Source: Mycolicibacterium smegmatis (lineage in GTDB: Bacteria; Actinomycetota; Actinomycetes; Mycobacteriales; Mycobacteriaceae). Taken from it: DNA of 32,000 bases. This document shows, one piece after another, positions 872 through 3,041 of the stretch. The notes beneath the pieces are model-generated. The model was not told where the DNA came from. It made no database searches and saw only the letters and a program-made list of their open reading frames with translations. How positions within the stretch are numbered: the stretch's first letter is position 1; each line of letters opens with the position of its first letter. Both the position numbers and the translations under genes were made by a program. The stretch covers positions 1,920,001 to 1,952,000 of the forward strand of contig NZ_LN831039.1 in the NCBI RefSeq assembly GCF_001457595.1, in the 5' to 3' direction.

Positions 872-912
872 CCAAACGAGCCAGGTGATCGAAAGGACTC
901 TCAATGAAGAAG

Positions 913-2121
913 TCAAGCCGCCGCGATGTTTGGGGGTGATTCAGGTTGCCAGGTCCGGTTGTCGCGGATGAGGGCGTAGAGAACGTTGGTGCGCCGTCGT
1001 GCCAGGCAGATGGTGGCGGGGATCGGCCGCTTTCCTTCGTCTCGTTTGCGCTGGTAGTAGGCCTTGGAATCTGGGTCGCAGCGGATCGCGGTCAACGCCG
1101 ACATGTACATGGCTCGGCGCAGTCGGCGACTGTAGCGCTTGGGGGTGTGCAGTCGTTCGGTGCGCTTTCTGGAGTCTCGAGACACTGGTGCCAGGCCGGC
1201 CCAGGCCGCGAGTTGGTCAGCCGATCCGATCAGTGCGGGATCACCGACGGCAGCGAGGAGTTCGGCGCCGAGTCGAAATCCCATGCCGGGCATACTGGTG
1301 ATCACCTCGGCGAGTGGATGGCGGCGAAATCGGCCCTCGATGTCGGCGTCGGTGGTCTTGATGCGGTCATCGAGGGCAATCACCTCCCGTGCCAGATCAG
1401 CGACCAACCCGGCGGCCACCTCTTCGCCGGGCAGACGCACCGTCTGGGTTTTCACCGCGGCCACCGCAGCCCCCGCGATCGAGGCGGCGTTGCGCACACC
1501 GGCATCGGTCAAGACTTTGGTCAGCCGCGAAACACCGCTTTGCCGAATCGCTTTGGGACGCTGGTAGCGCGCCAGCAATACCACCCAGCCACGGTCTTGG
1601 CTCAGTTGGGCGGCTCGTTCCAGGGCCGGGCAGACCGCGACGAGTTGTTGGCGCAGCCGGTTTATTGTGCGGGTGCGGTCGGCCACGAGGTCGGCGCGAT
1701 GGCCGGTGAGCATCCGCAACTCGCTGATCAAGTCATCATTGGGATGCAGAACGGGCAAGTCCTGCCCGCGCATCCGCGACTGGTCGGCGATCACCCGTGC
1801 ATCTTTGGCGTCGGTTTTGGCCTCCCCACCGCGGTAGGTCGCCGAGGCCTGCCACACCGCCCGGCCGGCCAGGTACCGGACCGTTTTGCCAGCGTCGGCC
1901 AGCACCGTCAACAACAGGGCGGCATACACCGTGGTCAGGTCCACCGCCCACAACACTCGCTCGGCCAGCTCGTCGATTTCAGCCACGAGCTCTCGGATCG
2001 GTTGCTCATCGTTAACCAACCGGCGCGACAACACCACCTTCCCGCTGTCGTCGACCACACATACCCAGTGATGCTCTTTACCGACATCCACTCCAGCCCA
2101 CACCTGGCCCGCCGCCATCAC
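913..2121 (-). CDS. IS110-family (DEDD-type) transposase/recombinase, 402 aa
   Basis: N-terminal VWAGVDVGKEHHWVCVVDDSGK...AVDL...TDAKDA (DEDD/RuvC-like) and C-terminal ITSMPGMGFRLGAELLAAVGD...AGLAPVSRDS are typical of IS110/IS900/IS1110 transposases. Start is GTG 2121 or ATG 2118. Confidence 0.9.
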   Translation of the reverse strand: MMAAGQVWAGVDVGKEHHWVCVVDDSGKVVLSRRLVNDEQPIRELVAEIDELAERVLWAVDLTTVYAALLLTVLADAGKTVRYLAGRAVWQASATYRGGEAKTDAKDARVIADQSRMRGQDLPVLHPNDDLISELRMLTGHRADLVADRTRTINRLRQQLVAVCPALERAAQLSQDRGWVVLLARYQRPKAIRQSGVSRLTKVLTDAGVRNAASIAGAAVAAVKTQTVRLPGEEVAAGLVADLAREVIALDDRIKTTDADIEGRFRRHPLAEVITSMPGMGFRLGAELLAAVGDPALIGSADQLAAWAGLAPVSRDSRKRTERLHTPKRYSRRLRRAMYMSALTAIRCDPDSKAYYQRKRDEGKRPIPATICLARRRTNVLYALIRDNRTWQPESPPNIAAA

Positions 2122-2362
2122 ACCTCTTTTCGCTTGTCTGCCAACATGATCCCCAAGGACAACCCCGCCAGCATTTCCTTAAACAAGCGATCACATCGCA
2201 GATCTCAATCAGCGGCCAGAGAAGTCCAGGCAGGCCGGGCGGCCAGTCCTTTCAAGCCGCACCAAGGGGCCGGCAACACACACCACAGCCACACCCGACC
2301 CACCCGGGTCACAGCCCAACGTAACTGCCTCAACAACACGAAGAAACTGCAACTACGAACTT
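2122..2362 (-). ncRNA. Candidate bridge-RNA-encoding 5' arm of the IS110 element
   Basis: 241-nt non-coding segment upstream of the recombinase inside the IS. It contains an inverted 9/9 copy (AGTCCTTTC, 2245-2253) of the left flank GAAAGGACT (891-899) and a direct AAGGAC (2155-2160). The assignment rests on analogy to IS110-family bridge RNAs. No structure was computed. Confidence 0.3.
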
Positions 2363-2372
2363 AAGGACTCAC

Positions 2373-3041
2373 ATGCTCGCTATCGCCGCTGAAGGTGTCT
2401 ACCGTCCGCAAGAAGACTCGCAGTTGCTCATCGATGCGCTGGAACGCAGTGGCGAGGTACCCGGCCGCCGCGTTCTCGATCTGTGTACGGGAAGCGGGGT
2501 TGTGGCGATCGCCGCCGCACACCTGGGTGCCGAACACGTGACCGCGCTGGACATCTGCCCGCGTGCCGTGGAATACGCCACGGCCAACGCCGCGGCGGCA
2601 GCAGCCGACGTGGACGTGAAGCTCGGCACCTGGAACGAGGCGCTCAACTGGGAGCCCTTCGATCTGGTCGTGTGCAACCCGCCGTACGTGCCCACCAGTC
2701 CTGCGGTCGATCCCGGCAGCGTGGCGCCGTGGGCCGGGCCCGCGACCGCCTGGGACGGCGGCGCGGACGGACGTATGATCCTCGACCCGCTGTGCGACGT
2801 GGCGGGTGCGATGCTCGCCGAGGGCGGCTCTCTGTTCCTCGTGCAGTCGGAATTCTCGGGTGTCGAGGAGTCCCTGACCCGCCTGAGCTGGAGCGGTCTC
2901 AAGACCGAGGTCGTCGTCACGCAGTCGATCCCGTGGGGTCCCGTGGTGACCGCCCAGGCGGAATGGCTGCGCGAAACCGGCCGGCTGCACGATGGTCGCG
3001 ACGACGAGGTGCTGGTGGTCATCCGAGCGGACAAGCCATGA
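2373..3041 (+). CDS. HemK2/Mtq2/N6AMT1-like class I SAM-dependent methyltransferase (222 aa)
   Basis: Contains EGVYRPQEDSQLLIDAL, LDLCTGSGVV (SAM motif I) and VVCNPPYVP (NPPY motif). ATG 2373 follows AAGGACTC. Confidence 0.8.
   Translation: MLAIAAEGVYRPQEDSQLLIDALERSGEVPGRRVLDLCTGSGVVAIAAAHLGAEHVTALDICPRAVEYATANAAAAAADVDVKLGTWNEALNWEPFDLVVCNPPYVPTSPAVDPGSVAPWAGPATAWDGGADGRMILDPLCDVAGAMLAEGGSLFLVQSEFSGVEESLTRLSWSGLKTEVVVTQSIPWGPVVTAQAEWLRETGRLHDGRDDEVLVVIRADKP

Follow-up and report, generated by a model that had tools for sequence, protein, structure and literature searches.

A mycobacterial IS110-family insertion sequence whose left-end arm very likely encodes a two-loop bridge RNA directed at ribosome-binding sites

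The analysed stretch of the Mycolicibacterium smegmatis chromosome (32,000 nucleotides; hereafter the window) contains, as a single copy, an IS110-family insertion sequence of 1470 bp (898-2367, minus strand), and we consider it very likely (probability of about 0.9) that the left-end arm of this element (2122-2367, minus strand) encodes a two-loop bridge RNA that guides the element to ribosome-binding sites. The claim is built on comparisons of the element with its relatives and their insertion sites, from which we infer the production of the RNA, its binding by the recombinase, its need for insertion, the exact crossover core and the ends of the RNA. The bridge RNA is an instance of the system described in 2024 and is not new as such. 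A bridge RNA transcribed from the minus strand of the arm had been proposed in the original prediction, and the comparative data support this proposal, as the guides vary with the flanks and the fold is conserved. We also agree that the arm contains no credible ORF, as only short ones of 44-47 aa were detected.

Three identical full copies of the element and one 517-bp left-end fragment were found in the genome. In an alignment of their junctions, identity began with GAAAGGA... on the left side and ended with ...CTTAAGGA on the right side. Other assemblies of M. smegmatis have the site unoccupied, as ...GATCGAAAGGACTCACATG..., which sets the size of the insertion at 1470 bp and shifts the end of the arm, previously placed at 2362, to 2365-2367. 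The segment AAGGACTC is present at both junctions (893-900 and 2363-2370). Elsewhere in the genus, the search for an empty site was uninformative, only the CsbD coding part being conserved there. In the orientation of the element (minus strand), the target reads CATGTGAG-TCCTT-TCGATC, and the junction of the circular form was reconstructed as ...CATTGAGAG-TCCTT-AAGTTCG.... The left end thus delimited comprises about 245 nt (2122-2367), and the right end extends about 15 nt beyond the stop codon of the recombinase gene. On the host side, the left target (LT; 2368..2375, minus strand) is CATGTGAG in element orientation and contains the ATG (2373-2375) of a methyltransferase gene. The right target (RT; 891..895, minus strand), host CTTTC in element orientation, belongs to the Shine-Dalgarno sequence of the methyltransferase gene, GAAAGGA, and is complementary to the right target guide described below. 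Both LT and RT are found in the empty site. We noticed that the insertion re-creates a Shine-Dalgarno-like TTAAGGA at an unchanged distance from the methyltransferase ATG at 2373 (window positions 2360-2375). The methyltransferase gene has in this way kept a ribosome-binding site, but any former upstream promoter now lies 1470 bp farther off.

The recombinase gene (913..2121, minus strand) encodes an IS110-family DEDD/Ser recombinase matching Pfam PF01548 and PF02371 (DEDD_Tnp_IS110, E = 9e-50; Transposase_20, E = 2.8e-22). The protein is 402 aa long when counted from the GTG at 2121, albeit comparison with relatives suggests that the ATG at 2118 is probably the true start. It is homologous to the bridge recombinases of ISCro4 and IS621, the solved structures of which matched at E = 3e-14 and 2e-11, respectively. 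The D..KTDAxD and Ser motifs align with those of ISCro4 and IS621, the second acidic residue being D, not E. Relatives were collected by a protein-guided scan covering one genome per species, which yielded 80 loci. Twenty-three of these, mostly from mycobacteria, were 76-89% identical, and the remainder, from Streptomyces, Nocardia, Nocardiopsis, Actinomadura and Pseudonocardia, were 38-54% identical. Searching 400 genomes of the family at the DNA level brought in further copies. In the group with 43-54% identity, the central 150 nt of the arm could still be detected with a left-end profile. Two of the copies, L104 and L116, have decayed, with recombinase ORFs broken down to 123 and 65 aa, respectively; in L104, the right target guide has gained a G and the left junction reads TCATTAA, and the donor guides are altered in L116.

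The original prediction pointed to a 9-mer, GAAAGGACT at 891-899 (plus strand), the reverse complement of which, AGTCCTTTC, lies in the arm at 2245-2253 (plus strand). Searching both strands of the 32-kb window confirmed this pair and returned just these two occurrences of the 9-mer, at 891-899 (plus) and 2245-2253 (minus). Its assignment to the left flank needs to be divided: 891-897 is host DNA (plus strand), and the element (minus strand) contributes 898-899, the final two bases of its right end. The proposed role as a guide is borne out by the relatives, in which arm and right junction vary together, and can be given more exactly as a 7-nt right target guide (RTG), GAAAGGA (2247..2253, minus strand), complementary to host TCCTTTC at the right junction, followed by a 2-nt handshake guide of the target loop, CU (2245..2246, minus strand), pairing with AG at 898-899. 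Among the relatives, at least five variant types have an RTG that is altered in step with the flank. GAGAGGA is combined with TCCTCTC at three independent sites, and the other combinations of guide and site are GAAAUGA/TCATTTC, GGAAGGA/TCCTTCC, GAAAGGC/GCCTTTC and AGGAGA/TCTCCT. The handshake pairings vary likewise, with CU/AG, UU/AA (in two lineages), AU/AT and GU/AC being observed. When the RTG and the handshake guide were taken together, their reverse complement agreed with the right junction at 9/9 positions in the window copy and in most insertions. Such full agreement extends over seven sequence types (AGTCCTTTC, AGTCCTCTC, AATCCTTTC, AGTCATTTC, ATTCCTTCC, AAGCCTTTC and ATTCTCCT), the AGTCCTCTC type being represented by three independent sites. 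Over ten distinct types, 83 of 90 positions matched, compared with 63.8 ± 3.4 after permutation, and none of 20,000 permutations scored as high. Covariation of guide and flank, which had been suggested as a check of the prediction, is therefore found in other insertions, and we did not encounter the opposite pattern of the same internal 9-mer beside unrelated flanks. Three unrelated insertions (L103, L039 and L032) have TCCCTTC at the right junction despite a GAAAGGA guide; this position may tolerate the A-C mismatch that recurs at TCCCTTC sites. Extending the RTG past 7 nt into the flank gave no consistent flank match by eye.

The 5' strand of the same loop carries a hypervariable block, UGUGGUGUGUGUU (2275..2287, minus strand), which we assign as the left target guide (LTG). 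Among the relatives, this block has a mean pairwise identity of 44%; the corresponding values are 91% for the left end outside the block and 100% for the loop of the left donor guide. The LTG has the sense of the left flank, and it matches the cognate flank better than permuted ones (6.06/9 versus 4.35/9; z = 9.9, 0/20,000); the match reaches 8/9 in five relatives. In the window copy, the LTG is a low-complexity GU run with several possible registers, and the matches in this genome are only moderate (6, 5, 5 and 3 of 9). This genome contains 203 TCCTTTC sites, of which 200 are free after subtraction of the three right junctions of the element. The site in the window, with an LTG score of 6/9, lies above all 200 free sites; the sites of the two other copies score 5/9 (top 5%) and that of the fragment 3/9, so that of the four occupied sites, three fall within the top 5%. 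The LT in the window ends in AG, like the left donor, and the handshake guide of the target loop could pair with its own target. In IS621, a handshake guide pairing with its own target blocks strand exchange in vitro (PMC11208160, PMC11208158).

The second loop is assigned to the ends of the element itself. The left donor (LD), CATTGAGAG (898..906, minus strand), is the tip of the right end, and its last two bases, AG (898-899), are the partner of the handshake guide; both LDG-LD and handshake guide-LD covariation support this assignment. The left donor guide (LDG), AUUGAGAUCU (2200..2209, minus strand), has the same sense as ATTGAGAG of the LD and matches it at 7/8 positions here, AUUGAGA(UCU) copying ATTGAGA of the right-end tip. 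Compensatory variants of the LDG and the element end were found in relatives (ATTGAAA, ATTCAGA and ATTGGGA), and 21 of 20,000 permutations reached the observed LDG-LD agreement. The right donor guide (RDG), UUAAGGA (2176..2182, minus strand), is complementary at 7/7 positions to TCCTTAA, with which the left end begins, and varies with the element ends TCCCTAA, TCCTTAG, TCCTTAC and GCCCTAC in relatives. AA (2174..2175, minus strand), on the 3' side of the RDG, was assigned by its position as the handshake guide of the donor loop; it matches the last two bases of the left flank in some relatives only, and does not match the left flanks occupied in this genome. The LTG, LDG and RDG had all been missed in the original prediction, which had instead named AAGGAC as a second guide-like segment. 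AAGGAC does occur at 2155-2160 (plus strand), but we rejected it as a guide, because it is the sequence of the stem closing the donor loop and varies in relatives. At this site, GUCC forms the 3' strand of the closing stem and is the only conserved part, the two bases beside it being variable (GUCCGU and GUCCAU).

The guides fall into a fold that is conserved across homologous copies. RNAalifold, applied to an alignment of 46 distinct left ends with protein identities of about 44-100%, recovered two modules, in each of which an outer stem leads through an internal loop to an inner hairpin. The outer stem of the target-binding loop is formed by 2288..2308 and 2226..2244 (5' and 3' strands, respectively; minus strand, as are all the elements of the fold), with alignment pairs 81-95/151-163 and up to six pair types per column. 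The hairpin inside this loop lies at 2256..2274 (pairs 110-113/133-136, of which 113/133 covaries). In the donor-binding module, the outer stem consists of 2212..2227 and 2157..2172 (pairs 166-184/228-244), the latter strand covering most of AAGGAC, and the inner hairpin, with the conserved pairs 201-204/210-213, lies at 2187..2199. A terminator scan picked up 2187-2199 as a terminator-like site, which we rejected, as it corresponds to the hairpin of the donor loop, with the U-rich beginning of the RDG strand behind it. Compensatory changes on both sides were observed in 12 of the 28 pairs, e.g., all six standard pair types at column pair 81/163. Standard pairs occupied 97.3% of the cells, versus 34-49% when the 3' partner was slid by 1-3 columns; shuffling within columns (n = 500) left 90.1 ± 0.4%, with a maximum of 91.5%. 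Many of the pairs are G-U, which places the fold on the recombinase-sense strand. A further stem-loop at the 5' end (2311..2350) was seen in the single-sequence fold but was not called by RNAalifold, and the hairpin is placed differently in distant relatives. Folded as a single sequence, the arm was not more stable than its shuffles (z = -0.98), and this held for both strands (z of about -1 for either); the case for the structure thus comes from the comparative data. In a scan of 700-2600 against Rfam 15 with E values up to 10, no bridge-RNA family was found, and the two matches returned (lincRNA-p21 region and gntR-DTE) are chance ones.

The junctions of variant insertions bear on the crossover core. 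Within TCCTT, the left and right junctions disagree at position 3 for L105 and L037, at position 4 for L103 and at position 5 for L020-22. In L029, position 1 is G at each junction as well as in the two right guides, and in L024 position 1 is the sole difference. As the variants leave only positions 1-2 of TCCTT common to the two junctions, the core is likely TC, with C invariant. Core copies are accordingly placed at 896..897 at the right junction and at 2366..2367 at the left junction (both minus strand), the latter position being drawn from the junction alignment, the empty site and the variant insertions. A CT core at positions 3-4, suggested by analogy with IS621, was rejected on account of the junctions differing at position 3 (L105, L037) and position 4 (L103). 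The CT dinucleotide of IS110-group systems probably does not hold for this element; a non-CT core is a variant and no argument against a bridge RNA mechanism. With TC as the core, the right guides would be composed of 2 + 5 nt followed by the 2-nt handshake guides, which is the geometry of IS621. The 3' ends of the LTG and LDG (UU and CU, respectively) would form wobble-only or no pairing with the proposed TC core.

Expression of the RNA can be considered from the reconstructed circle junctions. A putative -35 box, TTGACT (911..916, minus strand), overlaps the stop codon of the recombinase gene in the right end, and the left end opens with a putative -10 box, TAAGTT (2358..2363, minus strand); circularisation would bring them to a spacing of 17 nt. 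TTGAC(A/T), 17 nt and TAnnnT were present in 31 of 32 distinct reconstructed circle junctions, including those of distant relatives, and a sigma-70 promoter scan of the integrated copy returned no site. The RNA and the recombinase are probably transcribed from a promoter that is formed only on circularisation, judging from these junctions. A junction promoter has been described for IS621 (PMC11208160, PMC11208158).

In the mechanism we propose, the RNA would be made in the direction of the recombinase gene and would fold into a 5' hairpin and two internal loops. The target loop would present a guide pairing with the complement of the host Shine-Dalgarno sequence, and in the donor loop AUUGAGA(UCU) would read the right-end tip and UUAAGGA the left-end start. 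The DEDD/Ser recombinase would exchange strands at a short core, probably TC, after which CU behind the RTG would form the handshake by pairing with the two terminal bases of the right end. The expected outcome is an element lying, on the opposite strand, between the ribosome-binding site and the start codon of a gene; this landing place would follow from the right guide having the sequence of the Shine-Dalgarno motif.

Other explanations for the arm and its matches deserve consideration. The least probable, in our judgement close to negligible, is that the 9-mer match arose by chance with the aid of a low-complexity, purine-rich ribosome-binding-site motif. AAGGA-like motifs are indeed common upstream of genes, and dinucleotide-preserving shuffles, with 0.08 expected 9-mer matches, reached two matches in 1 of 100 cases. 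Nevertheless, chance would have to account for a 9/9 match kept in dozens of relatives through the seven sequence variants, and shared by all other copies in the genome. The left end could also be a mere cis-regulatory leader of the recombinase mRNA, acting on translation or stability with no part in DNA guidance. Its position, immediately in front of the Shine-Dalgarno sequence and start codon of the recombinase gene, would suit a leader, but a leader has no need for loop strands whose sequence follows that of host flanks and element tips from one independent insertion to the next, or for a hypervariable block tracking the left flank, and we regard this explanation as very improbable.

The same low standing is given to the idea that the 9-mer and the other matches are subterminal repeats acting at the DNA level, bound by the recombinase protein and not serving as RNA guides. 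Subterminal inverted repeats are present in IS1111 relatives, and the 9-mer repeats the right junction in inverted form. On the other hand, seven of its nine bases correspond to the host and not to the element, and in relatives they change with the host site; the segments sit in the internal loops of a fold supported by compensatory changes and G-U pairs; and the left and right guides of each pair read opposite strands, as in IS621.

Several likenesses link the bridge RNA proposed here to that of IS621 (PMC11208160, PMC11208158). The order of the 5' hairpin, target-binding loop and donor-binding loop is the same, and the 5' strand of each loop has the sense of the left half-site, the 3' strand being complementary to the core and the right half-site. 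The right guides of 7 nt are followed by candidate handshake guides of 2 nt, a probable promoter has its two boxes on opposite ends that meet in the circle, and the DEDD/Ser recombinases are homologous. However, the recombinase of IS621 is only distantly related (E of about 1e-11). The core is CT in IS621 but appears to be TC here, and the target is of the REP type in IS621 but a ribosome-binding site plus spacer here.

A much closer counterpart is IS1110 of Mycobacterium avium (with ISMysp1). By comparison of the proteins, the 1470-bp element is a close relative of IS1110, the two recombinases being very similar by eye along the whole length. Both elements share a mycobacterial host, a long left end and a short right end, and a left-end bridge RNA is on record for IS1110: Supplementary Table 5 of Durrant et al. 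2024 gives 'IS1110: detected bridge RNA end LE', a model-based detection, and likewise lists IS900 and IS902 (PMC11208160). For IS1110, the table specifies neither the guides nor the core nor a rule for the target. The element studied here is a separate one, residing in M. smegmatis with its own left target guide, and was compared with IS1110 by the protein row only. The IS900/IS901/IS902 group of M. avium belongs to the same family and shares the detection of a left-end bridge RNA, but its recombinases are more distant.

The landing rule of these elements was recognised well before bridge RNAs. IS900-type elements insert in one orientation between the Shine-Dalgarno sequence and the start codon, at a consensus near CATG-N4-6-CNCCTT. 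The sites found in this study consist of CATG or CACG, then 4-6 nt and then TCCTT. No paper linking IS900 to a bridge RNA was found in the literature that we searched. It is attractive to speculate, and we hold it to be slightly favoured by the present data, that throughout the IS1110/IS900-type clade of actinobacterial elements the bridge RNA acts as an address for translation-start regions, made up of four parts taken together. A nearly fixed right target guide may itself be the Shine-Dalgarno sequence GAAAGGA; in most members, the LTG may open with (C/G/A)AUG, which corresponds to the complementary strand of the host start codon; the individual gene may be chosen by some six rapidly evolving bases lying in between; and the core may be TC in place of CT. 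If this is true, the IS900-type target consensus reported in the 1990s would receive a mechanistic explanation, and guides would have been reprogrammed naturally among elements otherwise >90% identical. The guide map, the TC core and the Shine-Dalgarno reading of the right guide may be unrecorded for this clade, for which, as far as we found, the previous knowledge was a yes/no detection. Base-level guide assignments would now be available for a group including the diagnostic markers IS900 and IS1110, and a 245-nt "non-coding" arm of a mycobacterial insertion sequence could be annotated as an RNA gene. The natural series of reprogrammed left guides and the likely non-CT core could also interest those developing bridge recombinases for use in high-GC hosts.

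Besides the features above, we made several minor observations on the element and its copies. On the opposite strand, host GAAAGGA is followed by an ATG at 904, which opens an 11-codon ORF running to a TGA at 937 (904-939, plus strand). In frame with it, a 472-aa antisense ORF passes through the whole element (946-2364, plus strand). This arrangement is reminiscent of the 'hed' ORF described for IS900 (PMC8141618), though high G+C may be its sole cause. The left-end fragment (L004; G000:C1:1877406-1877922) is located ~43 kb upstream of the window and retains the left end together with ~270 nt of the recombinase gene. On the left it is flanked by GTTGTGGAG-TCC, a poor match to the left target guide in the standard register. 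Finally, in another M. smegmatis assembly (L093; GCA_039889265.1), compared with L001 and L002, the copy preceding the methyltransferase gene has the left flank ...GCGGTCAGAAAGGA..., which in this genome belongs to the copy at 4.63 Mb. This swap of flanks points to a rearrangement between two copies of the insertion sequence.
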